The position numbers and the translations under genes were made by a program. 64,000 nucleotides of DNA from Candidatus Woesearchaeota archaeon (GTDB lineage: Archaea; Nanobdellota; Nanobdellia; Woesearchaeales; 21-14-0-10-32-9), in the NCBI GenBank assembly GCA_020854775.1, contig JAHKLZ010000005.1, positions 49,797 through 113,796 of the forward strand, read 5' to 3'. Below the pieces are notes generated by a model. It was not told the DNA's origin. It saw only the letters and a list, made by a program, of their open reading frames with translations, and made no database searches. This document shows, piece after piece, positions 1,043 through 27,542 of the stretch (the stretch's first letter is position 1; each line of letters opens with the position of its first letter).

Positions 1043-1109
1043 TTTTTTTACTTCTTAGTGGTGCTTTGTGAAAAGTTTTTTATATTTGTTTGATTTTTTC
1101 GTGTTTGTC

Positions 1110-7791: not shown

Positions 7792-7819
7792 AATAACTAT
7801 TTTTTAGTGGTTACTAATC

Positions 7820-7830
7820 GTTATGTTTAT
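7820..7830 (+). promoter_or_regulatory. archaeal TATA box (GTTTATATATT) upstream of paralog B
   Basis: TATA-like element about 30 nt upstream of the ATG at 7857. Confidence 0.35.
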
Positions 7831-7856
7831 ATATTCTTTTTGTTCAACTGTTTTTT

Positions 7857-8213
7857 ATGAATATTAATTACGATTCTAATAAATTAAATACTCTTTGGTC
7901 TTTGTTGAGGAATCATTCTAATTATCCTGGTAAGCATGTTGGTTTAAAACAAGTTATGTTTCATTTGAACGTGGATGATTTTAGGAAGAAACATTCTAGT
8001 AAGATAATTAATGGTTGTGAAAGCATCGTGACGACTAATTTAGATGATGCTATTTCTCGTATTAGCAATAGTAGTATTAATTATTATCATCTTAGTTGCG
8101 TTGGTAATATTCTTAATGGGGCTAATTCTGCTGTTTGTGTTCATTTTAAGAATAATAAAGATAATAAGCATTATGCTTTAGCCATACCTGGTACTAATTA
8201 CATAATTAAATAA
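7857..8213 (+). CDS. hypothetical protein, paralog B of a tandem pair
   Basis: 118 aa. Same motif set as ORF 7369..7791 (YHLSC..AVCVH..LAIPGTNY). Highly diverged copy. Confidence 0.5.
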   Translation: MNINYDSNKLNTLWSLLRNHSNYPGKHVGLKQVMFHLNVDDFRKKHSSKIINGCESIVTTNLDDAISRISNSSINYYHLSCVGNILNGANSAVCVHFKNNKDNKHYALAIPGTNYIIK

Positions 8214-8689: not shown

Positions 8690-9106
8690 TCACACTACTT
8701 TTATTTCTTTTATTTCCTCAAAGTATTTTTTTACTATGTCTTCATAGTTTCTAAGGTTTTGGGCTCTTGCACCAATCATTAATCCTTTTGTTTTGGTGTC
8801 TGTTCCCTTAATCGTGATTATTCCTTCAATCATGTTTATGTCTTCCATTTTTAATGGATGCATAATGTTTTTAACGAAATCTAAAACATTAGGATTAAAT
8901 TCCACTATTTTAATGTTTCTATTAGTTGCTTTGACGAGTTTTTGAACGTTTTCTTTTTTATCTCCGAGTGCTTTTCTTAGTTCTCCGTGTTGTACGATGA
9001 AATACAATTTGTCTTTGTTCGTGAAGCAGTCTTTTAGTTTTGCTCTCGTTATTTTTTCGAACATAGTCATTATTTGCAGTGTTTGCACATCGTATTTAGT
9101 CTTCAT
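8690..9106 (-). CDS. nusA: archaeal NusA-like transcription termination factor (KH domains)
   Basis: KH-domain NusA homolog in the conserved position between L30e and S12. Start moved to the internal Met (MKTKYDV), which gives a 4-nt ATGA overlap with L30e. Confidence 0.75.
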
Positions 9107-9357
9107 TTTTGGAGTCCTATTACTGCTATTGAAAATGGTTTTCTGCAAAAAGTTCCTAGTTCGTCGTTATTTATTTTTAAAACTTCTAGTTCTGTTTTGT
9201 TTAATTCAGCGTACCTAGTTATGTCTTCTTTTGTTTCTTCGTCTAAGTTCTTAGCTATGAATACTTTTTGTAGTTCTCCTTTTTTTAGGAGCTTCATTGT
9301 TCTTTCTTTTCCTATTATTAGTTTTTCTGATTCTAATAGTTTTTTTAATTCGTTCAT
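9103..9357 (-). CDS. rpl30e: 50S ribosomal protein L30e
   Basis: 84 aa, L30e family. Canonical position downstream of rpoA''. Confidence 0.85.
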   Translation of the reverse strand: MNELKKLLESEKLIIGKERTMKLLKKGELQKVFIAKNLDEETKEDITRYAELNKTELEVLKINNDELGTFCRKPFSIAVIGLQK

Positions 9358-10543: not shown

Positions 10544-13141
10544 TTATTTGGTTGATTCTATTATTGATTTAACGTTTATTTTTCCGCCTTCAGTTTTTGA
10601 TACGTCTAATCCGTCTTCTCCATAATTAAATTGTACGATTTTTCTTGATGCATCTCTTACTGTGAAATCGTATTCTATTTTTAAGTCTTGCATCGCGTTC
10701 GCTAATCTTCTGTATAAATAACCTGACTTAGGCGTTCTTAGAGCGGTATCCATTAAGCTGTCTCTTCCTGTCATTGCCATGAAGAACATCTCGTGTGGTT
10801 TTAATCCGTCTTTGAATCCTCCTTTTATGAATCCTCTTGGGACCGCGCTCAGATCTCCTTTCTTGAAGCAAGATAATGATCTGTCTTTGTAGCCTTTGTC
10901 GATTCTTCCACCTCTTAGCGCTTGTTGTCCTACGCAAGCAGCCATTTGAGCTAAGTTAATTATATTTCCTCTTGCTCCGCTTCTTATCATGTGCATAGTG
11001 TTACTGTTTTGTTTCGCTGTTTCTTCCACTATGTTTCCTGATTCATTTCTTGCTTTGCTTAGTCTCTCAATTATTCTTAGTTCTATTGTTTCTTCAACGG
11101 ATCTGCCAGGTAATAATTCTAGTGTTCCTTCACTATATTGTTTAATGAACTTATCCACGTCTTTTTGTGCTTCTGTTATTATCTGACTAACTCTTATTTG
11201 TGCTTCTTCACTTAGATCCATGTCTGATATCTTAGATGTAAATCCTCTTTTTAGTAGCATTTCTGCTCCTAATCCGTTGATTAATCTTAGTAATCTTACT
11301 ATTTCTTTCTCTCCATATTTTTGGTGCAATTTTCTTAATAATAGTCCTGATCCTTGACCAAGATTAGCAGAGTCCATCACTCCTGATATTAGTTTTCCTT
11401 TCTCAATTTTCACGACTGCGTCAGGATCCTCAGGGTTCTTTGATGCTATTTTTGATTTTCCTACGAAGTCAAAATCGTCAGGTATCACCACTGAGAATAC
11501 TTCTTTCCCTGTTACTACTTTCTTGTTTGGTAACTTAGAGAAATCTTCTATTCCCGCGCTTGCTAATAAGTCTATTGCGTCTTCGCGTTTCATTTCGTAT
11601 CCTTTTCTTGTTAGTAAATAATTACCTGTTATGCTGTCTTGGATGCACGCAATGATGCTTAAACCATACCTAGGACTTATTATTTGTGTTTGTACTTCCA
11701 TTAATGTTTCTGCTTCTGCTCTTGCTTCTTCTGTTTGAGGAATATGAATATTCATCTCGTCCCCGTCGAAGTCAGCGTTGTATGGTGCACAAACAGCAGG
11801 ATTAAGTCTTAGTGTTAGTCCCGGTAGTACTTTTACTTTATGACACATCATACTCATTCTATGCAGGCTTGGTTGCCTGTTGAATAGTGCTATGTCTCCA
11901 TCCATTAAGTGTCTTTCAACTATGAATCCTGGTTGGATTTCTTCCAGTAATTGTTCTTTTGTTTCATTAGTTATGCGTTTTCTTTTTCCGTCAGGTCTTA
12001 AAACGTAGTTAGCTCCTGGGTAATCTTCATTTCCTCTTTCTACGAATCCTTTTAAGTATTCTATGTTCCACTCAGTGACTCTTTCTGGAACTGATAATTT
12101 CTTTGCTATAATACTTGGTACTCCTACTTCGTTTATGTCTAGTTTAGGATCTGGACTGATAACTGTTCTAGCTGAGAAATTCGTTCTTTTTCCTGCTAGG
12201 TTCTTACGAATTCTTCCTTCTTTGCTTTTTATTCTTGATGATAACGTTTTTAATGGTTGATTTGATCTGTGTCTCGCAGGAGGTAGATTCGCTACTTCGT
12301 TATCGAAGAACGTTGTTACGTGATATTGTAATAAATCCCATAAGTCTTCAATGATTATTTCTGGTGCGCCCGCGTTTATGTTTTCAAATAATCTTTGGTT
12401 TATACGCACGATGTCTCCTAATTTGTGTGTTAAATCATCTTCGCTTCTTTCTCCGCTTTCTAGTGTGATGCTTGGACGCATTGTTACTGGCGGTATTGGT
12501 AACACTGTTAGTATCATCCATTCAGGTCTCGCTATATCAGGTTTTATTCCGAATACTTTTAGGTCTTCATCTGATATTCTTTCTAGTCTTGCTCTTACTT
12601 GTATTGGAGATAATCTTCTATCTTCTTCTACGAACGTTGATGGTTTTTCTAGTGATATCTTTGATTGTTTTTCTTTACAGTAAGGACATGTTTGTATTGT
12701 TCTTAGATTAGCTATGATTAATTTTATTGCGTCTCTTCTTTCTATTAGTCCTTGTTCTAATGTTATTTTGTCTAATATGTCTGAGTATTGTTTTATTTTT
12801 TCTTTTGGTATTAGTATTCTTCCGCAAGCTTTACATGTTGATCTTAATAAATCTAGTATTACTGGAACAAAAGATATGTGAACTACTGGTCTTGCTAGTT
12901 CTAAGTATCCGAAGTGCCCAAAGCTTTCTTTTAGTCTTTGTCCGTCTGTTTTACATCTTAGTCCTGGGTCTATTACGCCGAGGCGTACATCCATTAGTCC
13001 TCCGTCTACTGGGTATCCTTCTTTGTCGTATAATTCAGGAGTTACTACTTTTGCTTTTGCTACTTTTTCTATCATTTTCGGCGACATTAGGCCGAATTCG
13101 ATTGATCCGATGTATTTGTATATTGGTTTTTCGTTACTCAT
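10544..13141 (-). CDS. rpoA1: DNA-directed RNA polymerase subunit A'
   Basis: 865 aa. N-terminal clamp and Zn motifs plus the NADFDGDEM active site. Confidence 0.92.
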   Translation of the reverse strand: MSNEKPIYKYIGSIEFGLMSPKMIEKVAKAKVVTPELYDKEGYPVDGGLMDVRLGVIDPGLRCKTDGQRLKESFGHFGYLELARPVVHISFVPVILDLLRSTCKACGRILIPKEKIKQYSDILDKITLEQGLIERRDAIKLIIANLRTIQTCPYCKEKQSKISLEKPSTFVEEDRRLSPIQVRARLERISDEDLKVFGIKPDIARPEWMILTVLPIPPVTMRPSITLESGERSEDDLTHKLGDIVRINQRLFENINAGAPEIIIEDLWDLLQYHVTTFFDNEVANLPPARHRSNQPLKTLSSRIKSKEGRIRKNLAGKRTNFSARTVISPDPKLDINEVGVPSIIAKKLSVPERVTEWNIEYLKGFVERGNEDYPGANYVLRPDGKRKRITNETKEQLLEEIQPGFIVERHLMDGDIALFNRQPSLHRMSMMCHKVKVLPGLTLRLNPAVCAPYNADFDGDEMNIHIPQTEEARAEAETLMEVQTQIISPRYGLSIIACIQDSITGNYLLTRKGYEMKREDAIDLLASAGIEDFSKLPNKKVVTGKEVFSVVIPDDFDFVGKSKIASKNPEDPDAVVKIEKGKLISGVMDSANLGQGSGLLLRKLHQKYGEKEIVRLLRLINGLGAEMLLKRGFTSKISDMDLSEEAQIRVSQIITEAQKDVDKFIKQYSEGTLELLPGRSVEETIELRIIERLSKARNESGNIVEETAKQNSNTMHMIRSGARGNIINLAQMAACVGQQALRGGRIDKGYKDRSLSCFKKGDLSAVPRGFIKGGFKDGLKPHEMFFMAMTGRDSLMDTALRTPKSGYLYRRLANAMQDLKIEYDFTVRDASRKIVQFNYGEDGLDVSKTEGGKINVKSIIESTK

Positions 13142-13150
13142 TTGATCGCC

Positions 13151-14956
13151 TCAAAATTTGCTTTTTAGTTTTAGTTTAGGATATAATCCTAGGGACTTAA
13201 ATTCGTCTATTAGTAGTTTGAACGCGTAGCTAACTTCTATGTCGCTCATCTCTGAGTCCTCGTCATACATAGGCGAGATTGCTCTGTTGTTTTTTCTCGC
13301 GTCGTAATAACCTGTTAGTCCTGATTTTTCGCATATTGGTACTACTACTGTGTCTGTGTCGAATCTTTCTTTTAGTGTTAGTGATGCTCCGTGAGCGATG
13401 AAGGTGTCTTTCTCCATCTCTCCTAATCTTAGTCCTCCTTCTTTTGCTCTTCCTTCTGTAGGTTGTCTTGTTAGTAGCTGTATTGGTCCTCTTGCTCTGC
13501 TGTGTATTTTGTTTGCTACCATGTGTTTTAATTTTAAGTAATATATGTTTCCTACGAAGATTTGTACTTGGTATTGTTCCCCTGTTATTCCGTTGTATAA
13601 TGTTTCTGAGCCGTCTTCTCTGAATCCTAAGTCTTTTAGTTCTTGTCTTATGTCTCTTTCTTGTTCTGATTCGAACATTGTTCCGTCAACTAGTCTTCCG
13701 GATAGCGCAGCTGTTTTTCCTGCTAATAATTCTAGTAGGTGAGAAATAGTCATCCTGCTAGGTATTCCGTACGGACTGAATATTATGTCTGGTCTTACTC
13801 CTGTGCTTGTGAATGGAATGTCTTGTTCTGGTACTACTAAGCTTATTACTCCTTTTTGTCCGTGTCTTGATGTGAATTTATCTCCTATTTCTGGTATTCT
13901 TTGTTCTCTTAGTCTTACTTGTATTAGTTTGTTTCCTTCTTCGTTCTCTGTTAATGATACGAAGTCCACTATTCCTTTTTCTCCGTGTTTTAGTGCGAGT
14001 GATGATTCTCTGTTTGAATCAGTTGCTAAGCTGTATTCTTCCATGCTGCTTAAGAATCTTGGCGGGCTGACTTTTCCTATTATTACGTCGCCTTCGTTCA
14101 CTTTTGATTCTGGGAATATTATTCCGTCATCTTCTAAGAATCTGTAATCGTGTTCTGATCTGTATCCTCTGACTTCTTTGTCTGGTATTTTTATTTCATC
14201 CATTAATCCGCCTGAGTATCTTAGTTCTTCTGATACTATTGGTCTGAAATAACTTGTTCTTCCTAGTCCTCTGTCTATTGAGCCTTTGTTGATTACGATG
14301 GAATCCTCCATGTTGTATCCTTTGTAACTCATAACAGCTAGTACTATGTTTTGTCCTGATGGGTGTTTATCATATTTTATTACGTCGTGTAACGCTGTTT
14401 GTACTAATGGGTATTGTGGGTAATGTAGTAAGTTAACGTCCATGTCCATTCTTACTGCTAGGTTAGCCGCGTATAGTCCTACTCCTTGTTTTTGATTCTT
14501 TGCTCCTTGATTTAAACGTACTCCTTGGTTGTAGTTTCCAAATGGTACTAGTCCCGTGATTAGTCCTAGTACTGATAATGGTGTTACGTCTAAGTGGGTG
14601 TGCTCATTTGTTAAGTCTTCTTCAAAGAATGCTATTAATGAGTTTTCTTCTTCTGCTGAATCTAAGTATTCTATTACTCCTGTTTTTATTAGGTCTGACC
14701 AAGTAATCTCGTTTTTTTCTAATTGTTTTAGGTGTTTTTCTTCTAGTAATGGTTTTCCTTCTTTTACTACTATTAGTGGCCTAGTTGTTCTTCCACTAGA
14801 AGTTTCTATTATTACTTTGTCTTCGTTTGGAACGTGTAATACGTTCACATCTTCTTCTATTTTTCCTGCTCTTCTCGCGAATATTATTTGGTTCACGAAG
14901 TCTTCTGGTTCTTTTACTGTTCCTGTGAATTTTCCATCTATGAATACGTCCGTCAT
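13151..14956 (-). CDS. rpoB1: DNA-directed RNA polymerase subunit B' (C-terminal half of split RpoB)
   Basis: 601 aa with conserved Rpb2 C-terminal motifs. Confidence 0.9.
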   Translation of the reverse strand: MTDVFIDGKFTGTVKEPEDFVNQIIFARRAGKIEEDVNVLHVPNEDKVIIETSSGRTTRPLIVVKEGKPLLEEKHLKQLEKNEITWSDLIKTGVIEYLDSAEEENSLIAFFEEDLTNEHTHLDVTPLSVLGLITGLVPFGNYNQGVRLNQGAKNQKQGVGLYAANLAVRMDMDVNLLHYPQYPLVQTALHDVIKYDKHPSGQNIVLAVMSYKGYNMEDSIVINKGSIDRGLGRTSYFRPIVSEELRYSGGLMDEIKIPDKEVRGYRSEHDYRFLEDDGIIFPESKVNEGDVIIGKVSPPRFLSSMEEYSLATDSNRESSLALKHGEKGIVDFVSLTENEEGNKLIQVRLREQRIPEIGDKFTSRHGQKGVISLVVPEQDIPFTSTGVRPDIIFSPYGIPSRMTISHLLELLAGKTAALSGRLVDGTMFESEQERDIRQELKDLGFREDGSETLYNGITGEQYQVQIFVGNIYYLKLKHMVANKIHSRARGPIQLLTRQPTEGRAKEGGLRLGEMEKDTFIAHGASLTLKERFDTDTVVVPICEKSGLTGYYDARKNNRAISPMYDEDSEMSDIEVSYAFKLLIDEFKSLGLYPKLKLKSKF

Positions 14957-16467
14957 TTTACACTCACCGTTTCTAATCCTAGTTCTTTTAATTTTGGTAC
15001 TAATTCTTCTTCGTTCACTGAGCTTGTTACTTTTGTTAGTAAAGCAAAGTTTTTTCTTAGTCCTATGTTTGTTCCTTCTGGTGTTTCACTCATGCACAAT
15101 CTTCCTAGATGCGTTGGGTGTAGTGCTCTTGCTTCGAAGTTTTCTTGGCTCGCACTCAGAGGACTTACTACTCTTTGTAATACTGATAATAATTGTATGT
15201 AGTTCATTCTTTCTATTCTTTGGCTGATTCCTTTTCTTGCACCTACCCAGTTCCCTGTTGCCATGCTACTGTATATTCTTTGGGTTAATAGTTTCTCTCT
15301 GATTATTACTCTTATGCTTGGGAATTTTCCTCTTTTTACGATTCTTTGAAAGTTGTATAACATGTCTCCTATTAGGACTTTGATGTTTACTCTGAACAAG
15401 TCCGCTAATAAGTCACCTGCTAGTTTTAGTCTTTTGTTTGCGTAATGATCTTTATCAGGCATAGGTATTTCTTTGTTAGATACTCTTAAGTAGTCTTTTA
15501 CGTATTTGCACAAGTTTATTGCTTTGTTTCTTCTTGCTTCAGTTGTTAATCCAACATGAGGTAATAAGTACTTGTCCATTATTTCTTTTACTCTTTCTAT
15601 TCTGATTTCTTTTGATTGTGTTATTCCTATTTCTTTTGCTATGTAGTCTATTGCGTCTTCTTCTGTTTTTATGTCTACGAATTCATACAAGTTTATGAAT
15701 ACTTCTGAGCTAGTTGGTAAATCTATTAGTTTCATTATTTCTTCGTCTTTTAGTATTCCTAGTGCTTTTATTAGAACTGTTACTGGTATTTTTCTTACTC
15801 TCGTAAATGAAATGTAGATTATTTCATCTTTTTGTTTCTCGATTTGATGAGGAATCTTGTATGATCCTCTTTCTGAGAATATTTTCCCTGTGAATTGTAC
15901 TGTTCCTGTTTTTTGTTCTTCTACGATGAAGCGGTTCGCTGCTAAGTCCTCAACTGAAACTATTACTTTTTCTGTTCCGTTTATTATGAAGTATCCTCCT
16001 GGGTCGTCAGGGTCTTCTCCTGCTTTTATTAGTTCTTCTCTGTTTTTTCCTTTTAAGTTGCAGTACTTACTTTTTAGCATTATTGGGATGTTTCCTATTT
16101 GCGTTGTGAATGATTCTTTTTGTTGTCCGTTGACGTGAGCCGATACTTCTAAGAATGCTGGTGCTGAATATGATAGTTTTCTTAGTCTTGCTTCTGCGGG
16201 TAATAGTATTCTTTTTGAGCCGTCTGCTTCTGTTATTTCTGGTTTTTCAACGGTTATTTTTTCTAGTCTTATTTTGAATTCTTCTACGTTCGTTGGTATA
16301 ATTGTTGGTTCTACTTCTTTGTTTTCTTCTATGATTATTTGTAGTTCTTCATCCATGAATTTGTTAAAAGAATCTATGTCTGCTTGTGCTACTGAGTGTT
16401 CTTCGAAGAATTTTCTTATTAAGAGTTTTGACCTAGTCATTTTTATGTCTTGAGCTTGATTATTCAT
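14953..16467 (-). CDS. rpoB2: DNA-directed RNA polymerase subunit B'' (N-terminal half of split RpoB)
   Basis: 504 aa Rpb2 N-terminal homolog. Overlaps rpoB' by 4 nt. Confidence 0.9.
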   Translation of the reverse strand: MNNQAQDIKMTRSKLLIRKFFEEHSVAQADIDSFNKFMDEELQIIIEENKEVEPTIIPTNVEEFKIRLEKITVEKPEITEADGSKRILLPAEARLRKLSYSAPAFLEVSAHVNGQQKESFTTQIGNIPIMLKSKYCNLKGKNREELIKAGEDPDDPGGYFIINGTEKVIVSVEDLAANRFIVEEQKTGTVQFTGKIFSERGSYKIPHQIEKQKDEIIYISFTRVRKIPVTVLIKALGILKDEEIMKLIDLPTSSEVFINLYEFVDIKTEEDAIDYIAKEIGITQSKEIRIERVKEIMDKYLLPHVGLTTEARRNKAINLCKYVKDYLRVSNKEIPMPDKDHYANKRLKLAGDLLADLFRVNIKVLIGDMLYNFQRIVKRGKFPSIRVIIREKLLTQRIYSSMATGNWVGARKGISQRIERMNYIQLLSVLQRVVSPLSASQENFEARALHPTHLGRLCMSETPEGTNIGLRKNFALLTKVTSSVNEEELVPKLKELGLETVSVK

Positions 16468-16828
16468 TGATTACACCTCTGTAGAATATTGCTTTTCCCG
16501 CTGTTGAGCTTGTTCTTGTTATTTTTATTATGTCGTTTTCTTTTGCTTTTAAGTGTCTTATTGCTGGGTCGTTTCTGATTATTTTTGGTAGTTCTTTTAT
16601 TGTTATGTTATGATAATCAAAGAGTTCTTGTGCTTCTTTTTCTGTTATTTTTTCGTGCAACGGTATTAAGGAGTGTTTCACATGAGAAGTTTCTTTTGTG
16701 TCTGCTCTGGTTTTTTTCTTTGTTCTTACGACTTTTTCAGCTTTTTCTTTTTTTACAGCTGTTTTTTTCACTGTGACTTTTTTAATTGTTTTTTTAGAAT
16801 TAGTTTCTTTTTCGTTTTTTTTAGCCAT
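16460..16828 (-). CDS. rpoH: DNA-directed RNA polymerase subunit H (Rpb5 homolog)
   Basis: The C-terminal 73 aa is canonical RpoH (HSLIPLHEKITEKEAQEL...). It carries a 49-aa Lys-rich N-terminal extension. An in-frame GTG at 16681 would give a canonical 73-aa protein instead. Confidence 0.8.
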   Translation of the reverse strand: MAKKNEKETNSKKTIKKVTVKKTAVKKEKAEKVVRTKKKTRADTKETSHVKHSLIPLHEKITEKEAQELFDYHNITIKELPKIIRNDPAIRHLKAKENDIIKITRTSSTAGKAIFYRGVINE

Positions 16829-16864
16829 TTTAATTTGTTACCCCCTTAAGGTATTTGATTTTGA

Positions 16865-16938
16865 TGAGTCGGACGAGATTTGAACTCGCGACAACTTGGT
16901 TAAAAGCCAAGTGCTCTACCAGGCTGAGCTACCGACCC
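16865..16938 (-). tRNA. tRNA-Lys (anticodon UUU)
   Basis: Cloverleaf folded by hand: acceptor GGGUCGG/CCGACUC, anticodon loop CUUUUAA, T-loop UUCAAAU, discriminator A. Confidence 0.85.
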
Positions 16939-16970
16939 TTAAGCGTTTATTTTTAAAAAAAAGTACAAAC

Positions 16971-17045
16971 GCCCTGGCCGGGATTCGAACCCGGGTCGAA
17001 GCCTCGACAGGGCTTCATGATAGGCCAGACTACACCACCAAGGCA
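16971..17045 (-). tRNA. tRNA-Asp (anticodon GUC)
   Basis: Acceptor GCCUUGG/CCAGGGC, anticodon loop CUGUCGA, T-loop UUCGAAU, discriminator G. Confidence 0.8.
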
Positions 17046-17145
17046 TCTTTGTTTGTCATTTATTCGTGAATAAAGCACTCCATCTAGCATTATTTGGAAA
17101 TTTGGTCAATTTATAAACCTTACGTTTTTGTTTATTTAAGAAGAG

Positions 17146-17293
17146 TCCCTCGGGGGAGACTTTCAGAAACAAATTTTTTTTGTTTTTTTTGAACTCCCAA
17201 CCTTTCGGTTTCAGCTGACCATGTTTCATTCAACTCCGAGGAGCCGTCTCGTGGTTTCTACAGCCGAACGCTCTACCGTTGAGCTACCGAGGG
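17146..17293 (-). tRNA. tRNA-Tyr (anticodon GUA) with a canonical 37/38 intron (~48 nt) and a second ~28-nt insertion in the T-loop (59/60)
   Basis: C1:G72 acceptor pair (CCCUCGG/CCGAGGG) with discriminator A, and anticodon loop CUGUAG|A as in archaeal tRNA-Tyr. Exons total 72 nt once the two insertions are removed. The second insertion contains the hairpin AACAAA...UUUGUU. Confidence 0.6.
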
Positions 17294-17415
17294 ATACTCT
17301 TAGAGAAATAATATTTTTTATAAAGGTTTCCTTTGGTTTTTTGTTGTGTTTGTGTTTTATTCTAACCCCTAAAACGTTATAACTACTAGTAAATGACGAA
17401 AGATTTATATATTGT

Positions 17416-18738
17416 TTGTTATTATTAGTTATTATGAATAAAGTAATGCCTGAAGCTTATCTTTGTAAAGACCTTAAGAACAGGGTTGAGAATCTTAAAA
17501 GCTTAGTTAAAAGTACTATGGAGCAAGTTCATAGTAAGTATTCTTTTAAGGATGAAGATATAAGTGATAATAAGTTTCAGGACGAGGTTATTAGGCATAT
17601 TAAGAAGAGTTTGAAGAGTTCTGATTTTTATCAGCTTGATGCTATCGTTAAGGTTTGGACTGATGCTCGTGGAAGCACTATTAAGAAGTATTTTGATTCT
17701 AGAATGGAAGTTGATGAAGGCGTTAATCCTAGACGGTTCTTAAAAGTGGCTACTAAGGGTAATTCTCAGGGTTCTTTAACTCAAGTATTAGAAGAAGATC
17801 TTGAGCCTTGGGTTGATTGTGTGAGTAACGTGTTAAAGAAAGCTCATAATCGTAATTTTTTGTCAGGGACTTCTACTAAGAAGCAAGTTCTTTCTCGTTT
17901 GAAAACAATGATTGATTATCCTGTTAGCATAAAGGAAACCCCTGTTAATTCTCATGTTTCTGAGGAAGGCATAGAGACTCTTATTCTTAATGAGCCTGAT
18001 AAGTATTTGCCTAGTAGCGCCGTTAAGATTCTTTCTGAGAATCCTGGATTGGATTGGAAAGACATAGCCATAGTGACTGCTAATGTTCTTGAATATGACG
18101 TTGTTTCTAAGAAGACTTCTAAGAAAGCCAGGCTCGAAGGTAGGATTAAGTCTTCGGAAGCTATGAAGCTCGCTAAGTACGTCTCAGGTATAAGAAAGGA
18201 GCCTATGTATGATGGTATAGGCGTGATGGAGCTTTGTGAGAGTATTGATGATATTAACAAGCATGTTTCTCAGGCTCTTTTGTTGAAAAGCAACAGGAAT
18301 CATAATCTTAGTCATCGTTATCCTTTAAGTCTTGATGATAAAAGTATTAGTAAAACGCTTAGGGAGTCTTTTGATGCTTCTGAGGAAGCAGTCGTGGAGT
18401 TGCTTAGAACTTCTTACTTAATAGGTAATAACGAGTTGTCTGAGCATAGAGTAAACAAATGCAAAAGTGCTTTGGTGTATGGTACTTGGCTCGATATGAA
18501 TCTTAAAAGTAATAAGAGCCCTATAGAAGTACAGTTCAAGGATAATCTTGGTTATTTCTTGTACGTTTTTAATAGTCCTTTCGGTCATAATTCTAAGGCT
18601 TATAACTCTATGAGGACTAACGAATTGTTTAAGAAAGTGAAAATAAAAAATAAAGAATATAACGTTAACAAAATAGCTGAGTATGTCGCTAACGAGATAT
18701 TTTTGCCTGCTTTTTTATCTTCTAGGAATTATTCATAA
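17416..18738 (+). CDS. hypothetical protein (440 aa), compositionally atypical
   Basis: No recognisable domain. The sense strand is A-rich, unlike other plus-strand genes here. Lies next to the tRNA cluster. An alternative start is MNKVMPEAY at 17434. Confidence 0.4.
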   Translation: MLLLVIMNKVMPEAYLCKDLKNRVENLKSLVKSTMEQVHSKYSFKDEDISDNKFQDEVIRHIKKSLKSSDFYQLDAIVKVWTDARGSTIKKYFDSRMEVDEGVNPRRFLKVATKGNSQGSLTQVLEEDLEPWVDCVSNVLKKAHNRNFLSGTSTKKQVLSRLKTMIDYPVSIKETPVNSHVSEEGIETLILNEPDKYLPSSAVKILSENPGLDWKDIAIVTANVLEYDVVSKKTSKKARLEGRIKSSEAMKLAKYVSGIRKEPMYDGIGVMELCESIDDINKHVSQALLLKSNRNHNLSHRYPLSLDDKSISKTLRESFDASEEAVVELLRTSYLIGNNELSEHRVNKCKSALVYGTWLDMNLKSNKSPIEVQFKDNLGYFLYVFNSPFGHNSKAYNSMRTNELFKKVKIKNKEYNVNKIAEYVANEIFLPAFLSSRNYS

Positions 18739-18951
18739 GATGTCTTCAACAGGTTTCTTCTTAGGAACTTCTTGTTTTTCTTGCTTAGTTAAGTCAACGC
18801 CTAGTTCTTTTAATGCGCCTATGTGCATCTGCATTAATTGTTCAACTATGCTAAGGATTCTTGCTAGTTCTTCTCTTTCCTTAGAAAGCGTTGATAATGA
18901 TCCTTTATGAAATCCTATTTGTTCATCTTTAGACATGTTCTTCGTATCCAT
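18733..18951 (-). CDS. small coiled-coil hypothetical protein
   Basis: 72-aa ORF convergent with and slightly overlapping the previous gene. No homology recognised. Confidence 0.3.
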   Translation of the reverse strand: MDTKNMSKDEQIGFHKGSLSTLSKEREELARILSIVEQLMQMHIGALKELGVDLTKQEKQEVPKKKPVEDIL

Positions 18952-19118
18952 TAATTATCACCTTTTATTACTTCGTTGTACTTCGTATTTTATAAAGTTT
19001 ACTTTTAAGTTTTTGTTAATGTCTGAAACTTAAAAAATAAATTACGAGAAGAATTTAAGAAAAAAAAAGAAAAAAAAAGAAAAAAGGTTAAAAACTATTT
19101 TGGCTTAATCAATGCTTC

Positions 19119-21320
19119 TTAGTTAGGAGCGTTGATTGCACTAACTGAAGTTCCAGACACGATAACTTCAACTTCTTTGTTTCCAGCGAACTTAGCTTTG
19201 TTAGCTTCAAAGTCAGCTAGAGCAAGTGAAGCTGCTCTTGTGTCTTTACCTTCGTAACCAGCTACTAAGATAGCGTTCTTATCTTCGAACAACTTAATCA
19301 TAGCTTTATTAGGTTCGAACATATCTGCGATTTCTTCGCTGAATTGTTGTACGCCTAATAGGTTAGCTGCTACTGTGTTAGCGTTTGGTCCACCAACTAC
19401 TAGCATTGGTACGTTACCAATCATGTTCATAACTTCTCTGTCTAATACTCCAACGTCAGCTGGTGGTATTGCAACGATTTGGTATGCGCCGTCTGTACTT
19501 GAAACATGTGTTTGTGTGTCTCTTGTTTTTACTACAACTACTGCTTCAGCTGCTTCATGAGGTATACTCATTGTTAGTCTGTTTCTGTCTAGTTGGTATT
19601 CTGGATTATCGATTGTTACACCATATCCTAGCATTAAACCATAGTCTAATCTACCTAGTTGTGTGTTAGGACCATATATTAAATCAGTTCCTTGTGCTTC
19701 GCTTAGTTTGTCTCCGAATGTTCGGAAACCACAAATAGCTTCTTCAGTCGTGCCATTTACATTTACTACGAAACTACCCACTGTACAATTACCATTTATT
19801 GCAGCACCTGTGTATCCAGCTCCATGAGTAAGATTTACAAACAGAGATTCACTACCAAATTCAAACACTAGTCCTTCTGTATCTACACTAACATTTAATC
19901 CTTGGTTTCTCTTCATGTTTATCAAGAAACTGTCAACAGGTGTATCATCCATAAGGATTAAATCTGTACCATCGTCGTAACCCCATAAGAGTTCATCATT
20001 GTCTTGATCAATAGCATAGACATATAGTTCATTGGTTTTAACAGTTCCAATTTCGAATACATCACTGCTTGTGTCTGCTGTTAATCTCATAACATACAAG
20101 TTAGGAGTTGCTACTGTATCATTACTATTCAATACGAAACTTGTTCTTACGAAGTCGATGTTCAAATCAGTTCTTGCGTTGTCAACATATCCTGAGAATT
20201 CTACTGCTACGAATCCTCCTGGTAGTTTCCATTCTTCGCCCATTCCTAATGCAGGCCTGGTTGTTGCACTGTCTGATAATGGATCTTCTCTTAGTTTGTT
20301 GTTAACAATCCCAACAGAATTCAAATAGTTATCTGTGAATGATGTAGTCCATAACCATTCTGCTTCTGACATTCTGTCTGATTCTCCTAGTAGCTCTGCT
20401 GGTTGTCCATCTTCGATTTCAGATGTGATATCTTCGCCAAGTTTCAATACTACGCCGTTGCTTGCATGTCCTGCTTCAACGAACATTAGCTGATCTACTT
20501 TAACTGTGAACCAGTTAGCATTTCTGAATGAGTATTCGTCATTCAAGCTAATAAATCTTGATTCACCGTTTACTATTACTCTAACAGTGTCTTGTGCGAT
20601 TACATCAACTTTTACAGTTACACCATCAACAGTTACTTCGTCTCCTTGGTTGAAGTATTCTTCAACTGAAGATTCTACTGTGAAAGCACCAGTATCATTG
20701 TTGTATTCAGTCACTATGAATTCTCTTCCTAGGAATTCGAATCTTAGTTCTTTGTTTCCTGATCCAAAATCAGAATCATTAACATTTATTTTGCTTGATT
20801 CAAATTCTACTCTGTATTCTATAGCGTCTTCCTTAACAACTAAGTAAGGATTTAATCCGAAGTCTTCATTCAAATCTTTAATTGATGTTTTTACCTTCAT
20901 TTCTTTTTCTGCTAACTCAACTACTTCTTTTACTTTAACGTTGCCACTTCCCCATCTGATTGTTCTATCGTACAATCCTGAAAGGTCTGACTGGTCCAAT
21001 GGTTCAGCTACTTCTGGGAAAGGTGTGTTTAGACCGTATTCGTCATACCAACCACCTTCTACGGTGATTACTCCGCCGCCTACGCTTACAGGTACTTTAG
21101 AATAAGTTTGTAAGCTTGCACCTAGAGCTGCTGCTCCAGCGATGTCTTCAGCTGCTGCTACTGCGCCCACAACTACTTTACCGTTCCATGCGCCGTTCTC
21201 GATTAATGGTGCTGGGTAGTTTCCTAAATCAGCCGCCATTGCTCCCATTACAGTTGCACCAAGCATTGTTGCTCCTGTAAGAACAGCGGTTATTTTTTTT
21301 ACTGTTTTCTTTATGTTCAT
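19119..21320 (-). CDS. S-layer (surface-layer) protein precursor
   Basis: Signal peptide, then a methanogen-type S-layer N-terminal motif (NGKVVVGAVAAAEDIAGAAALGASLQ) and a C-terminal block (ILVAGYEGKDTRAASLALADF). Strong GGAGGTG ribosome-binding site, a ~440-bp leader, and an A/T-tract terminator downstream. Confidence 0.7.
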   Translation of the reverse strand: MNIKKTVKKITAVLTGATMLGATVMGAMAADLGNYPAPLIENGAWNGKVVVGAVAAAEDIAGAAALGASLQTYSKVPVSVGGGVITVEGGWYDEYGLNTPFPEVAEPLDQSDLSGLYDRTIRWGSGNVKVKEVVELAEKEMKVKTSIKDLNEDFGLNPYLVVKEDAIEYRVEFESSKINVNDSDFGSGNKELRFEFLGREFIVTEYNNDTGAFTVESSVEEYFNQGDEVTVDGVTVKVDVIAQDTVRVIVNGESRFISLNDEYSFRNANWFTVKVDQLMFVEAGHASNGVVLKLGEDITSEIEDGQPAELLGESDRMSEAEWLWTTSFTDNYLNSVGIVNNKLREDPLSDSATTRPALGMGEEWKLPGGFVAVEFSGYVDNARTDLNIDFVRTSFVLNSNDTVATPNLYVMRLTADTSSDVFEIGTVKTNELYVYAIDQDNDELLWGYDDGTDLILMDDTPVDSFLINMKRNQGLNVSVDTEGLVFEFGSESLFVNLTHGAGYTGAAINGNCTVGSFVVNVNGTTEEAICGFRTFGDKLSEAQGTDLIYGPNTQLGRLDYGLMLGYGVTIDNPEYQLDRNRLTMSIPHEAAEAVVVVKTRDTQTHVSSTDGAYQIVAIPPADVGVLDREVMNMIGNVPMLVVGGPNANTVAANLLGVQQFSEEIADMFEPNKAMIKLFEDKNAILVAGYEGKDTRAASLALADFEANKAKFAGNKEVEVIVSGTSVSAINAPN

Positions 21321-21780: not shown

Positions 21781-22260
21781 TTATTCTTTTTTTATTTCTT
21801 TTTTGAGTTTATGTCTTAATTCATTAATTTTTTTTTCGTTTAATTTAATAAGAATAGATTTACATTTCACTAAGAACTCCGGTGATTTTTGAATCATCTT
21901 ATTGTATTGTTCGTCTGGAACAGTTCTGTCTACGTAGTACTGAGAATCAACTCTCGCTTTTAAAGAATCTTCAATAAATCCTAATTCATCTTCTTCAAAG
22001 TACTCTTTTAAGAATCTTTTTGCGAATTCGATAGTGCATGAATGAATTTCACATTTCACACCTAATTTCATCAGAACAGCATATAATGAAAAATAAATCG
22101 TGTAATACGCCGTGGATATTCTCCAATCTTTAATTATGTTTAGCCTCATCGATTCGAGTGCTTCTTCTGATTTTTTAATGTAAGCTTTTGCCAAATCAGA
22201 ATTTGGATCGATTAAGTTCAACCCTTCTTTTTTTTCAATACACCACTTTATTTTATTCAT
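21781..22260 (-). CDS. HEPN domain protein (partner of the upstream nucleotidyltransferase)
   Basis: Helical HEPN-like fold (PF05168-type). Overlaps the minimal nucleotidyltransferase gene by 8 nt, as in HEPN/MNT toxin-antitoxin pairs. Confidence 0.55.
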   Translation of the reverse strand: MNKIKWCIEKKEGLNLIDPNSDLAKAYIKKSEEALESMRLNIIKDWRISTAYYTIYFSLYAVLMKLGVKCEIHSCTIEFAKRFLKEYFEEDELGFIEDSLKARVDSQYYVDRTVPDEQYNKMIQKSPEFLVKCKSILIKLNEKKINELRHKLKKEIKKE

Positions 22261-22906
22261 CTTTAAAAACCACTTCTATAAATTGTTCTGCATTTAAAAA
22301 AACCACGTGGTTTTTTAAAACTTCTTTTATGAGAACGTCTTTCATCATATTTTTCTCAAAATTATTTAAAGGATAACACTTAACACTTATTTCTAAACCT
22401 AAATTCTTTGAAACTTTTTTTATTTCTTCATTATTATGACTTCCTACAATAAAGATATCCAAATCAGAACCTTTTTTTTCTAATCCTTTAACGTAACTTC
22501 CAAAAATTATACCTATTCCTTTAATATGAGGCGTTATTTTTTCTATTATTTCTTTAATTAAAAGTTTTTTTTCTAAAAAAGCAATTAATTTATATTGTTC
22601 TACAAAAACAAGATATCTCTTAGTGAATTCACTCACATTTAATTTAAATATCTTAATTTTACCTTTTGTTTTTGATTCCACAATTCCTTTTTCTTCTAAA
22701 TCTTCAAGGACGAGTTGCGCCGTTCTCGGACTAATTTTTAACAATTTTCCAACTTCTCTAACATAATACTCTCTTTTAAAATCATTAGTGAATAAAGCTA
22801 ATACTCTCAAAGTATTCTCCGTGAATCTTAATTTTTCATACATACGTATACTTAATAATACAACCATTATATAAATTTTTTTATTATTTTCATAATTTAT
22901 CATCAT
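22253..22906 (-). CDS. winged-HTH fused minimal nucleotidyltransferase (MNT)
   Basis: N-terminal wHTH (LKISPRTAQLVLEDLEEKGIV) plus the nucleotidyltransferase motif GSYVKGLEKKGSDLDIFIVG. The real start may be MYEKLRF at 22843. Confidence 0.6.
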   Translation of the reverse strand: MMINYENNKKIYIMVVLLSIRMYEKLRFTENTLRVLALFTNDFKREYYVREVGKLLKISPRTAQLVLEDLEEKGIVESKTKGKIKIFKLNVSEFTKRYLVFVEQYKLIAFLEKKLLIKEIIEKITPHIKGIGIIFGSYVKGLEKKGSDLDIFIVGSHNNEEIKKVSKNLGLEISVKCYPLNNFEKNMMKDVLIKEVLKNHVVFLNAEQFIEVVFKDE

Positions 22907-23752: not shown

Positions 23753-24844
23753 TTATAAATTATATAAATGTTTCTGTTTTTCTTTCGGAGATTTTGCAAC
23801 CATTAGATTTAAATCAAAAAGTTTTAATTTCTTCCCTAATACTATGTAATTATTTATTAAAGATTTGCCTTCTTCATTTATAAATACGCCATAATCCCCT
23901 ACTTTAAAATTGTCAGAGTCTTTATTTTTATTAAACATTTTAACTACTGCACAATTTGATGATGCTAAATCTATAAGATTTCTATAAGCAGGAGATCTTT
24001 TCATAATTCCTGAGTTGAGTAATTCATCACCTTTAAAAACCCAGTAGACAGGGTGTCTCGCGTAAGAAATTGTATTAATTGATTTTTTTTCTAAAGGAGT
24101 TATAAATGGAAGATGTTTATTTGAAATAGGATAAACAAGTACTTTTTCTTTGAATTCCGGCATCAACGGCCTGATATTTTCAAATATTAAAAATTTTTTT
24201 TCTTTTTCTAAACGCATATCTAATAAACTTAATAATAAATCCGCTGTTGATATGACTGGATTACAACAATCGCCTGAAGGATATGTTAAAAAATTAAATC
24301 CTAATTTTTTTAATCTTTCATAGCCCTCAAAATTACGTCCTTCAAAAAAGTCTAAATGAAAATTAACTGTTTCTGAAGAAAGATAATCGCTTAATCTCCA
24401 CGCGCAAACAATCGGAAAACAATGAGTTAAATGTTTATTTAACAATTCTTCATAATTCATTGTTGGTTTATTTAATTTAATTTTTTTATCTTTTGAAAGT
24501 CTACCATATACTTTTATTTCAGGCACTCTTTTTTTTGAAAAAAGAGTGTAAAACACATGAATCTTTTCTATATGTTTAACTATTTGTTTAGAAAATTCAT
24601 CAAGTATTTCAAAAGCATTTTCAAAATCTTTAATATCATTATAACAATAATATTGATAATCAGGAATTTTATTAACTTTTTTAAAAGCTTTATTCAAAGC
24701 TATTTTGTATGCTTCATCAAATTTAAAAAAATCATCTACTTTTACAGCCACTCCCAATACTGAGTCAAAATATCCTGGTTCACCATTATTTTTAATAACT
24801 TGTCTTTTAAATAATCTTGAATCGATACCGATTATACTTACCAT
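23753..24844 (-). CDS. hypothetical protein (363 aa)
   Basis: No confident homology. The N-terminus IIGIDSR is reminiscent of the first motif of RNase H-like or RuvC-like nucleases. Lies between two tRNA genes. Confidence 0.4.
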   Translation of the reverse strand: MVSIIGIDSRLFKRQVIKNNGEPGYFDSVLGVAVKVDDFFKFDEAYKIALNKAFKKVNKIPDYQYYCYNDIKDFENAFEILDEFSKQIVKHIEKIHVFYTLFSKKRVPEIKVYGRLSKDKKIKLNKPTMNYEELLNKHLTHCFPIVCAWRLSDYLSSETVNFHLDFFEGRNFEGYERLKKLGFNFLTYPSGDCCNPVISTADLLLSLLDMRLEKEKKFLIFENIRPLMPEFKEKVLVYPISNKHLPFITPLEKKSINTISYARHPVYWVFKGDELLNSGIMKRSPAYRNLIDLASSNCAVVKMFNKNKDSDNFKVGDYGVFINEEGKSLINNYIVLGKKLKLFDLNLMVAKSPKEKQKHLYNL

Positions 24845-25676: not shown

Positions 25677-27542
25677 TTAGAATAGGTTTGAGAAGAATCT
25701 CTCTATTCCGCGAATCATTCTTCTTAAGAAATTAGTTTCTTTTTCTTGGTCTTTTATTTCTCTTTCTATTTTTTCTTTTTCTTCTTCTATTATTTCTTGT
25801 TCTTCTTCTAGTATTTCTTGTTCTTCTTCTTCGTGTTCGTCTTCGTATATTTGTCCGTCTACTTTTAATCTTGATGTTTGTTGTACTTCGTAGTCTAAGT
25901 CAGGGATTCTCGCCGTCGTCGTTATTATTAGTTCGTTTCTTGTTGGTCTTTCTGGCATTTTTATTTTGTATAAGTATGCTTGTTCGTTTTGTTTTCCTAG
26001 CATATTAGTTGTTTTTGATGTTTGTCCAGCTATCATTGTTACTTTTTGGGAGAACGTATCTTTTATTTCTACGTTTCTTAATTGGTTGTCTGCTAAGTTT
26101 TGAATTGTTGTTTCTATTATTATTTCTTCTTCTGCTTTAGTTGTTGATCTCGGCGTTAGTTTATGACTTATTTTTAGTAATGGTCCTTTTCCTATTACTT
26201 TTAGTGAATCTGTTAGTATCACTGTTTCTTTTTGTCCTGCTTCGTTAGAGAAAGTAATTGTTGCTTTTACTTCGTATGTTTTATCTTCTTCTAGTTGCGG
26301 AGGAATAATTTTTTGGTTTAGTAAAGTTATTATGCTTCCTGGCGCGATGTTACTCAGTGTTTCTGTTCCGTTATACAGTGCTGATTCTATTTTTGCTTCT
26401 ATGTTTCTGAATGATAATGATGCGTGCTCGTTTTTTAGTATTATTTGTAAGTCTGATTCCGAGTTTAGTGATATTTCTTTTCTTGTGAATTGTAGTGATG
26501 TTGCTAATCCATCATTTAGTACTTCTATTTTTTCTTCGAAGTTTTCTTCGTATTCATAGTTGTGACTTAGTTGCGTTACTAAATTAAATGTGTATGATCC
26601 CGCGAAGAAAGGTCTGTATCTAACTGAGAATACGCGTTCCGTTCTTGCAGGTATTACTACGTTAGTCGCGGAGTGTACTCCGAATCCTGTTCTTGTTAGT
26701 CTTTGCATTGGTACGTATTGAAAATTCACAGGTCCTGTTAATATTAATTCTTTTATTTCTAAGTCGTTGGACATGTGTATGTTCTTTACTAGTATCTCAA
26801 AAGTTTTTAGTTCCCTGATGTACATGTCTTTTGGATTAGTAATTTTTATTTCGTAAGGTAGTAATCCTTTCACTGTGAAGCTTCCTTTCCTGATGGATAC
26901 TCCTTCCTTGGTTAAGTCATAGTCTACTCTTTTGTTTCCTTCTGTTTTTATTTCGTAATTGAAAACGTATTCTTTTTCTTCGTTCGGTGATAATGATACT
27001 GGTATTGTTAATTTGTTTCCTAAGTAAACAAAGTTCTTTCTGTTAGTTATGTTTATTCCTTCTGGAATCGTGATTTCTAGTTGTGCTCCGCTTAGATGAA
27101 TGGTTGCGGTGTTCTTAATTGTTATTTTTGCTTCTTGTTCATAATTAGTGAATTTGCTTCCTGTCTCTGATGATTTTATCGTGGCTGAATGTCCTGATGC
27201 CGCGTCTGCTTGCGTTATTTTTATGTGTATTCCCGGCATCAATTGTCCTTTATCGTCTATGTTTGGTTTTTTTTCGAAGCTGTAATTTTGATAGCAAAAA
27301 GTGTATGATTCGTGGTCTCTGCAACTTCCTAAGCTTATTAAGTTTCTGTACTCATTTTGTCTGAATAAAACGTTTTTGTAGTCTTGGCTTAGTTTTACTT
27401 CGTAAATGTCACTTCCTATAATGAATGTTTCGTAGTGTTCGAACCAGTCTTCTTTTATTGTTTTTTGTGCTGATGCTAAGCTCATGCTTAATATTATTAA
27501 AGAAATTATTAATAGTATTGTTCCTCTTTTTTTGTTAATCAT
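25677..27542 (-). CDS. secreted or cell-surface protein with a poly-Glu C-terminal tail
   Basis: Signal peptide (ILLIISLIILSMSLASA), beta-rich repeats, and a C-terminal EEEQEILEEEQEIIEEEKEK stretch. No TM anchor. Confidence 0.45.
   Translation of the reverse strand: MINKKRGTILLIISLIILSMSLASAQKTIKEDWFEHYETFIIGSDIYEVKLSQDYKNVLFRQNEYRNLISLGSCRDHESYTFCYQNYSFEKKPNIDDKGQLMPGIHIKITQADAASGHSATIKSSETGSKFTNYEQEAKITIKNTATIHLSGAQLEITIPEGINITNRKNFVYLGNKLTIPVSLSPNEEKEYVFNYEIKTEGNKRVDYDLTKEGVSIRKGSFTVKGLLPYEIKITNPKDMYIRELKTFEILVKNIHMSNDLEIKELILTGPVNFQYVPMQRLTRTGFGVHSATNVVIPARTERVFSVRYRPFFAGSYTFNLVTQLSHNYEYEENFEEKIEVLNDGLATSLQFTRKEISLNSESDLQIILKNEHASLSFRNIEAKIESALYNGTETLSNIAPGSIITLLNQKIIPPQLEEDKTYEVKATITFSNEAGQKETVILTDSLKVIGKGPLLKISHKLTPRSTTKAEEEIIIETTIQNLADNQLRNVEIKDTFSQKVTMIAGQTSKTTNMLGKQNEQAYLYKIKMPERPTRNELIITTTARIPDLDYEVQQTSRLKVDGQIYEDEHEEEEQEILEEEQEIIEEEKEKIEREIKDQEKETNFLRRMIRGIERFFSNLF

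Follow-up and report, generated by a model that had tools for sequence, protein, structure and literature searches.

A tRNA-Tyr gene interrupted twice

Does a segment in which standard search tools report no tRNA encode a working tRNA-Tyr, interrupted once beside the anticodon and a second time within the T-loop? The question is raised by the minus strand between positions 17293 and 17146 of a 64,000-nt stretch of contig JAHKLZ010000005.1 (Candidatus Woesearchaeota archaeon, assembly GCA_020854775.1), which was analysed in full and is referred to here as the window. An earlier note on this DNA had proposed that the exons of an archaeal tRNA-Tyr are separated here by two introns, and gave no strand. 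Reading of the sequence combined with in-silico splicing identified a tRNA-Tyr(GUA) with two inserts. The locus is a genuine tRNA-Tyr gene interrupted beside the anticodon and within the T-loop, with an archaeal splice signal at both places, and it is very probably a functional gene of a Woesearchaeota-like DPANN archaeon carrying two bulge-helix-bulge (BHB) introns. The exon/intron anatomy, the BHB geometry, conservation, covariation and the promoter motif support this directly; the participating enzymes, cleavage as such and a possible role for the T-loop intron are proposed by analogy with established archaeal tRNA biology.

The spliced product is a 72-mer with 7/4/5/5 stems, in which all 21 of 21 stem pairs are Watson-Crick. 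Exon 1 supplies the 5' strand of the acceptor stem, the D arm, the 5' strand of the anticodon stem and C32 U33 G34 U35 A36 G37. Exon 2 continues with A38, the 3' strand of the anticodon stem, the variable loop AGGUU, the T-stem strand GGGAG and U54 U55 C56 A57 A58 A59, and exon 3 is composed of U60, the T-stem strand CUCCC, the acceptor 3' strand CCGAGGG and the discriminator A73. The anticodon loop (CUGUAGA, with GUA, G37 and A38) and the T-loop (UUCAAAU) have seven nucleotides each, and the variable loop has five. All conserved loop and tertiary nucleotides are kept upon splicing (U8, A14, G18G19, A21, U33, G53, U54 U55 C56, A58 and C61). The tyrosine identity set is likewise present (C1:G72, A73, the GUA anticodon and a short variable loop), and each of the hallmarks named in the earlier note, namely C1:G72, GUA followed by G37 A38, and the UUCAAAU loop, can be read in the spliced sequence. 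C1 and G72 are retained by every tRNA-Tyr family member listed. The C1:G72 pair together with A73 is used by archaeal and eukaryotic tyrosyl-tRNA synthetases. The terminal CCA is not encoded within 17146..17293.

The behaviour of the search tools depended on the T-loop insert. ARAGORN did not call the gene on the genomic sequence, with or without its intron search. Deletion of the 28-nt segment led to a call of tRNA-Tyr(gta) with a 48-nt intron, and deletion of both segments to a call of an intron-less tRNA-Tyr(gta) with a cloverleaf free of mismatches; deletion of the 48-nt segment alone gave no call. The proposal that the exons assemble only after removal of 48 nt behind position 37 and 28 nt at 59/60 was thus borne out, and the ARAGORN intron search suggested with it was informative once the T-loop insert had been taken out and silent before. 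The Rfam model RF00005 scored the genomic sequence at 14 bits, versus a gathering score of 29, skipping the T arm, and the gene was called neither at the gathering threshold nor at E ≤ 10; so low a score is expected, as a second long insert is beyond what the model can skip. These misses reflect a limitation of the tools and do not speak against the gene. Annotation of this genome by ARAGORN and the curated Rfam threshold would list tRNA-Tyr as absent. The archaeal mode of tRNAscan-SE probably handles the gene, because a 2026 preprint that applied it to 208 complete Nanobdellota genomes found all amino-acid specificities except Trp and Val (10.64898/2026.05.13.725050).

Since two free deletions enlarge the search space, shuffled windows of 64 kb were scanned for tRNAs that could carry inserts behind position 37 and in the T-loop, have any anticodon and contain no stem mismatches. 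The scan returned 0.017 hits per shuffled window, and chance is therefore no explanation for the two-insert tRNA-Tyr. The RpoB'' sequence of the window was present on nine contigs from several samples, and three of those fetched carry an identical 148-nt gene. This identity, found in independent assemblies from at least three samples inside DNA that is 100% identical, excludes an assembly artefact. The coordinates of all features are collected in Table 1.

Table 1. Anatomy of the interrupted tRNA-Tyr gene and its upstream element (positions in the window).
Feature	Positions	Strand	Basis
Complete tRNA-Tyr(GUA), C1 to A73, 148 nt with two introns	17146..17293	-	sequence; ARAGORN after in-silico splicing; minimum free energy (MFE) z-score of the precursor -4.16
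Exon 1, CCCTCGGTAGCTCAACGGTAGAGCGTTCGGCTGTAG, tRNA positions 1-37	17258..17293	-	sequence; ARAGORN after splicing
Intron 1, 48 nt, canonical position 37/38	17210..17257	-	ARAGORN; homology to the intron of relatives, with covarying outer stem
Exon 2, ACCGAAAGGTTGGGAGTTCAAA, tRNA positions 38-59	17188..17209	-	sequence; ARAGORN after splicing
Intron 2, AAAAACAAAAAAAATTTGTTTCTGAAAG, 28 nt, non-canonical position 59/60 in the T-loop	17160..17187	-	removal needed for the tRNA call; BHB geometry; family comparison
Exon 3, TCTCCCCCGAGGGA, tRNA positions 60-73	17146..17159	-	sequence; ARAGORN after splicing
Central BHB helix of intron 2, 5' strand U54 U55 C56 A57	17190..17193	-	four Watson-Crick pairs with UGAA 17165-17162
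Central BHB helix of intron 2, 3' strand UGAA	17162..17165	-	followed by the 3' bulge A,G/U60 (17161-17159)
Outer helix h' of intron 2, AAACAAA (17185-17179) with UUUGUUU (17173-17167), 7 bp, loop AAAAA	17167..17185	-	RNAfold
TATA-like box TTTATAAA, -31 to -24 relative to C1	17317..17324	-	read directly

The T-loop intron and its bulge-helix-bulge motif

The insert at 59/60 folds as a near-textbook BHB, in which the T stem GGGAG:CUCCC serves as the outer helix h. The 3' bulge of A,G/U60 (the slash marks the predicted cut) is exactly 3 nt long and abuts the C61:G53 pair; the bulge in the 5' strand is A58,A59/A, with a length of 3 nt only when the A·C at the first h' position (17186 with 17166) is counted as a pair. 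Behind this mismatch stands the 7-bp h' helix. The AACAAA/UUUGUU hairpin described earlier therefore exists, one pair longer (AAACAAA/UUUGUUU) than the 6 bp it had been given. With respect to the T stem, the intron has the same geometry as the 37/38 intron has with respect to the anticodon stem, both lying between the sixth and seventh loop nucleotides. Cut positions were assigned by the published BHB rule, under which two symmetrically placed 3-nt bulges are each cleaved behind their second nucleotide. The insert opens with several A residues, and from the 5' side alone the cut could not be placed unambiguously; the 3' bulge resolves this, and the geometry relative to the T stem thus fixes the predicted cuts at 59/60. 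Taken together, the segment is supported as a BHB intron with predicted cleavage sites.

Conservation and covariation among relatives

Relatives were collected from two sources, and their loci are denoted by L numbers. The comparison of species genomes covered 80 loci fetched via RpoB''. A tRNA-Tyr lay within ~4 kb upstream of rpoB'' in 12 of them; nine of these genes contained only the canonical intron, one was intronless and two carried an additional insert at 59/60. The latter two, L007 (Nanoarchaeia PL23a_bin.67; 19 nt) and L031 (Nanoarchaeota AUK188; 56 nt), were found by a scan blind to the BHB, and both inserts sit exactly at 59/60 with textbook hBHBh' motifs, i.e., the strict two-bulge BHB flanked by the outer helices h and h'. 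Metagenomes were scanned with a pattern consisting of the Tyr anticodon loop, UUCRA, a YGRR element and a GGGA end at the correct spacing, without any demand for stem complementarity. Of the 41 contigs that matched, 38 fold as cloverleaves free of mismatches, and the remaining three are tRNA-Tyr genes with a third intron in the D-loop. These three-intron genes are found in L088 (~935-1120, plus strand) and, with identical sequence on the minus strand, in L104 (D-loop insert of ~31 nt), as well as in L097 (~6730-6887, plus strand; ~13 nt).

The two-insert layout accordingly occurs in 40 other genes (two from species genomes and 38 from metagenome contigs). Together with the window they comprise 37 distinct two-intron sequences, 36 of them further to that of the window, with T-loop inserts of 14-56 nt. 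Across this set the insert sequence is variable and the mature 7-nt T-loop is conserved. The strict 3-nt/0 geometry at 59/60 is found in 16 of the 37 genes, and the window belongs, together with L082 and L090, to a small class with a single mismatch at the first h' pair. In the metagenome set, the independent evidence consists solely of the 57:i-5 pair, the h' helix and the cloverleaf stems. The 57:i-5 pair, which the search pattern had left free, is A:U in 19 sequences, G:C in 16, G·U in one and A·C in one (Fisher's p = 2e-8 for sequences that are related to one another). In strict register, the run of h' pairs averages 3.24 bp compared with 0.99 ± 0.17 in shuffled sequences, a value reached by 0 of 2000 shuffles. 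In a fixed-register alignment of 34 columns, 88.7% of the cells are paired as against 68.0 ± 1.5% after shuffling (0 of 500 reach the observed value), and the covariation score is 0.592 as against 0.229. Sliding the register by -1 or +1 column reduces pairing to 62.4% or 48.6%, respectively. Double-sided changes affect all five h' pairs and four of the five T-stem pairs, and T-stem pairing reaches 100% in the family. The non-canonical second intron claimed in the earlier note is hence corroborated by BHB geometry, the 40 other genes, covariation, register specificity and independent assemblies.

Genes with and without the T-loop insert interleave among the relatives. L002, which has no insert, shares 86% identity in intron 1 with L110/L118 (40-nt insert) and at most 62% with other single-intron genes. 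The insert of the window is 77% identical to that of L113, and an AACAA...UUGUU stem is common to many inserts of the A57/UGAAAG group. Because of this shared stem, inheritance with sporadic loss of the T-loop intron would seem to fit better than many independent gains, as far as such short sequences can indicate. The data provide a covariation-supported set on the retention, loss or gain of T-loop BHB introns. What is new is modest: a 59/60 intron of tRNA-Tyr that is widespread, with patchy distribution, in DPANN of the Woesearchaeota/Nanoarchaeota type (37 distinct two-intron sequences plus the three-intron variants).

The canonical intron

The 48-nt intron was placed at 37/38 by ARAGORN, and its position is not in doubt. 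The 3' bulge A,A/A38 beside the anticodon stem and the C32:G pair are both canonical, the latter (32:i-2) being found in the window and in 43 of 44 relatives. The rest of the motif is relaxed: the central helix is made up of C32:G, U33·U, G34:C and U35·G, and an internal loop of four 5' and two 3' nucleotides separates it from ACCA:UGGU, so that the motif is not a strict hBHBh' (a 4-bp central helix and a 3-nt 5' bulge). This '4/2' relaxed class is also seen in 12 of 44 relatives, and in one subgroup an extra RYAG element gives a perfect central helix. Intron 1 belongs with the relaxed BHB motifs described earlier (PMC3239211). Thus, of the BHB motifs that the earlier note had suggested looking for at both junctions, the one at 59/60 is near-strict and the one at 37/38 is present in relaxed form only; a permissive endonuclease would be needed for the canonical junction and not for the one in the T-loop.

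Intron 1 is homologous across the group (L002, L006, L007, L011, L016, L027, L032 and most of L081-L121). Its layout comprises a strongly covarying 6-bp outer stem, each pair of which shows 3-10 double-sided changes, together with an invariant GA, an inner hairpin and (R)AUGA with invariant UGA, and an invariant CAG precedes the 3' splice site across the group. Near its 3' end, CAGCUGA (17217-17211) can pair with exon nucleotides U28-G34, UCGGCUG (17265-17259, minus strand), in competition with the anticodon stem. The resulting helix, a possible alternative conformer, leaves U35 A36 G37 A A bulged, and represents both the MFE fold and the RNAalifold consensus for 22 relatives; in general form, the alternative helix of C29-G34 with CAGCYG leaves U35-A36-G37 bulged. 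Other registers considered for 37/38 (a 3-bp central helix CUG:CAG, or GCUG:CAGC) were rejected, since they give asymmetric cut sites or a wrong anticodon loop.

The window intron fits a consensus kink-turn (K-turn; GA / CGGCUC-CUCG-GAGUUG / AAU / GA). It also fits a strict K-turn template, with tandem sheared G·A pairs flanked by a regular C stem, a 3-nt bulge and an NC stem. This template fitted 6 of 44 relatives, compared with a mean of 2.5 and a maximum of 8 in shuffles, which is not significant. In Euryarchaeota (Haloferax volcanii and others), a box C/D guide RNA is located inside the intron of tRNA-Trp. Intron 1, and intron 1 only, resembles that case as a canonical-position intron carrying a possible K-turn-forming element. 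A box C/D guide RNA was nonetheless rejected for intron 1: box C is missing from the 5' end, the box D-like CUGA of the 3' end lacks conservation in the relatives, spacer length is insufficient (~6 nt for the first) and the putative guide pairs inside the intron itself. An H/ACA-like guide for U35 was rejected as well on grounds of topology and size, since the intron has neither an ACA box nor a pseudouridylation pocket divided by an upper stem. It is conceivable, though we consider it unlikely, that the canonical intron is more than a passive spacer and acts as a protein-binding module (for example, for L7Ae) that chaperones or orders maturation of the precursor; such a module could serve intron-dependent modification of the anticodon loop or set the order of the two splicing events.

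Weighing of alternative explanations

Several observations count against a functional gene with two BHB introns. The motif at 59/60 is not perfectly strict, its first h' pair being A·C or, in an alternative description, part of a 4-nt/1-nt internal loop, and that of the canonical intron is clearly relaxed, with a U·U mismatch in the central helix. In the unconstrained MFE fold, the anticodon stem is exchanged for the exon-intron helix UCGGCUG:CAGCUGA; the same fold (z = -4.16) retains the acceptor, D and T stems and the hairpin of intron 2. In the metagenome set, the search pattern itself dictated three of the four pairs in the central helix, and the p-values overstate independence, as the sequences are related. 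Finally, neither an EndA nor an RtcB gene was found within the window.

The same body of evidence was set against four other explanations. If the canonical intron were the only one, the mature RNA would retain the 28 nt, with an enlarged T-loop or an extra hairpin. The stable 7-bp hairpin could indeed protrude from the T-loop, the Rfam model cannot place a second intron, and splicing is predicted here from the sequence. However, a retained insert does not agree with the range of 14-56 nt and the little sequence conservation across the 37 distinct genes, in which the splice geometry is always kept (a 3-nt bulge abutting the T stem, plus 4 bp formed with U54-N57), and removal always leaves a canonical UUCRANU loop. 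Close relatives have no insert at all, the pairing of U54-A57 would break the T-loop/D-loop interaction that mature tRNA needs according to established tRNA structure, and a similar 59/60 insert is cleaved in ARMAN-2 (PMC3239211). We regard retention as very improbable. The same holds, to the same degree, for a decaying pseudogene in a genome where another intact gene supplies tRNA-Tyr. The view here is limited to 64 kb, which leaves room for a second copy elsewhere, and standard tools miss the gene; yet all 21 stem pairs are formed and no conserved tRNA position is lost, compensatory changes preserve every stem of the interrupted architecture throughout the 37 distinct sequences, and the promoter box is conserved. 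In addition, the position of tRNA-Tyr within ~4 kb upstream of rpoB'' recurs in 12 of 80 loci, including the two-intron L007 and L031, and DPANN genomes are small, with tRNAs that are usually single-copy. The median number of tRNAs per genome is 35 (10.64898/2026.05.13.725050).

A chance combination of tRNA-like pieces, or else an artefact of assembly, has in its favour the search space opened by two free deletions. It is the least credible of the four and already refuted by the shuffles, which were run under the same relaxed rules with any anticodon, and by the three independent assemblies; the 40 other genes of the same architecture (36 further distinct sequences) argue against it too. Scarcely more credible is the view that the T-loop insert marks the scar or attachment (att) site of an integrated mobile element. 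tRNA genes are common targets of archaeal integrative elements, and the presence of the insert is patchy among relatives. The insert is only 28 nt long, though, and encodes nothing; no 3' tRNA segment is duplicated, and an att scar would not maintain the conserved, covarying BHB geometry.

Proposed maturation of the precursor

For the gene with two BHB introns, the following pathway is proposed. Transcription from its own TATA-box promoter would yield a precursor of ~148 nt, in which EndA would cut both BHB motifs and leave 2',3'-cyclic phosphate and 5'-OH ends. For the 59/60 motif, the outer helix would be the T stem and the central helix U54-A57:UGAA, with cuts in the 3-nt bulges A58 A59/A and A G/U60; at 37/38, the anticodon stem would act as the outer helix of the relaxed motif. 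An RtcB-type ligase would join the three exons, giving the 7-nt loops CUGUAGA and UUCAAAU, RNase P and RNase Z would trim the ends, and a CCA-adding enzyme would complete the 3' end. U54-A57 would be sequestered until the T-loop intron is removed, and T-loop modifications and the D-loop/T-loop interaction would therefore have to follow splicing. A broad-specificity endonuclease would presumably be required, as the literature suggests (PMC3239211, PMC5829648). The simplest reading of the T-loop intron is a neutral, heritable insertion tolerated by a permissive endonuclease; protection of the tRNA gene against integrating elements is a published hypothesis.

Relation to known interrupted tRNAs

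The closest known counterparts are pre-tRNA-Cys(GCA) and pre-tRNA-Pro(GGG) of ARMAN-2 (Candidatus Micrarchaeum acidiphilum; Fujishima et al. 2011, PMC3239211), likewise a DPANN archaeon with an intron exactly at 59/60. In both systems the T stem forms the outer helix of the BHB, and several introns occur per gene; the ARMAN-2 tRNA-Pro carries introns at 53/54 and 59/60, and the 13-nt 59/60 intron of tRNA-Cys was cleaved in vitro by the organism's own EndA (PMC3239211). The affected tRNAs differ (Cys and Pro there, Tyr in the window), as does the motif: the tRNA-Cys intron of ARMAN-2 has a relaxed hBH motif, whereas the 28-nt intron of the window has both bulges and a 7-bp outer helix. The EndA of ARMAN-2 is of the epsilon2 type. 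An alpha4 EndA with an added 'L3' loop was reported in several DPANN lineages with many disrupted tRNA genes, among them a Woesearchaeota genome of the survey (PMC5829648).

More distant parallels are provided by the multi-intron tRNAs of Thermoproteales and other Crenarchaeota, which, according to the account of Sugahara et al. 2008 and Marck & Grosjean 2003 given in a review (PMC4090602), contain up to three BHB introns per tRNA. The review lists 59/60 among the recurrent archaeal intron positions; it is one of the recurrent non-canonical positions in these organisms too, and introns are patchily present or absent among their relatives, as in the window family. They differ in phylum and in having an (alpha-beta)2 endonuclease with a Crenarchaea-specific loop, and are hyperthermophiles with GC-rich genomes, unlike the window genome with its GC content of ~33% and A/U-rich T-loop intron. 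T-arm and multiple introns are also present in nuclear tRNA genes of Cyanidioschyzon merolae and in nucleomorph tRNA genes (PMC3728597, PMC9602550, PMC4090602); these are eukaryotic, employ different splicing enzyme complexes and have no evolutionary link to the tRNA-Tyr of the window. Introns at 59/60 and multi-intron tRNAs are thus already documented in DPANN and Thermoproteales, and the window gene is a further example. A literature search, which did not cover all journals, found no description of a 59/60 intron in tRNA-Tyr of Woesearchaeota. Existing knowledge of tRNA splicing is unchanged, and the value of the gene lies mostly in annotation.

Host, promoter and genomic neighbourhood

The best RpoB'' matches of the window (79%, then 65-71% identity) are metagenome-assembled genomes labelled Candidatus Woesearchaeota, Nanoarchaeia or Nanoarchaeota; identity to Pacearchaeota and others is ~45%. 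The host is therefore a Woesearchaeota-like DPANN archaeon, in agreement with the earlier note, which had named DPANN among the lineages typical of such tRNAs, and its species is not represented among 185,579 representative genomes. DNA 100% identical to window positions 11953-19467 is found in L122, L123, L124 and L125 (ENA ERZ27252304, ERZ27252300, ERZ27252301; JGI 3300033170), and the same RpoB'' occurs on two recorded contigs of 0.2-1 Mb, so that a near-complete genome probably exists.

A TATA-like hexamer starts between -29 and -36 in 37 of 44 family genes. The TATA-like box of the window is a putative promoter element of tRNA-Tyr, a function assigned from what is known of the layout of archaeal promoters. 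The tRNA-Tyr gene is located upstream of tRNA-Asp, tRNA-Lys and an archaeal RNA polymerase operon (rpoH, split rpoB''/rpoB', rpoA', rpoA'', an L30e-family gene, NusA and S12), in which the open reading frame (ORF) of the L7Ae/L30e family (9103-9357) occupies the usual place of rpl30e. Pfam scans of 60 window ORFs revealed no tRNA_int_endo (EndA) domain. Several other genes for tRNA maturation or modification form a functional group in the window: a CCA-adding enzyme (50-1042, truncated N-terminally at the edge of the window), an RluA-type pseudouridine synthase (28882-29634), an Elp3-like radical-SAM/GNAT protein (50548-52233) and Trm1 (61557-62606).

Four large ORFs have no Pfam match, namely 17416-18738 (+), 23753-24844 (-), 25677-27542 (-) and 40530-42182 (+), encoding 440, 363, 621 and 550 aa, respectively. 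The 440-aa ORF is divergent and adjoins the tRNA-Tyr promoter; a 434-aa gene is called there in the identical L122 and L123. An ORF with a HEPN domain (159 aa) and one with a nucleotidyltransferase domain (217 aa) overlap by a few bases at 21781-22906 (-), which is the usual layout of a HEPN/MNT toxin-antitoxin pair.

Other interrupted tRNA genes

Rfam detected seven tRNAs in the window, two of them with introns. With tRNA-Tyr added, three of eight carry introns, the count given in the earlier note. When Rfam was run across the entire window with relaxed settings, no additional disrupted tRNAs came up. One of the two is a tRNA-Thr at 55624-55738 (+), for which the Rfam alignment and the canonical 37/38 position give the anticodon CGU and a 43-nt intron; ARAGORN places a 43-nt intron after position 32, with the anticodon AGU. 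Inspection of the BHB by eye favours CGU, though the central helix then contains a G·G mismatch. The other is a tRNA-Ala(GGC) at 30887-30995 (-), with G3:U70 and an insert of 35-37 nt that includes an A8/U8 hairpin. In its Rfam alignment, pairs of the anticodon stem are marked as non-standard, so that the intron may not sit precisely at the canonical position. Just 3' of the tRNA-Tyr of L031 (~7750-7900, plus strand), a sequence beginning GTGCCCCGATAGTCTAGCGACCTTTTCTCCCGAGAAAAGC... resembles the 5' half of a tRNA interrupted in the D-loop region; the Nanoarchaeota AUK188 genome, from which this locus derives, seems rich in disrupted tRNA genes.

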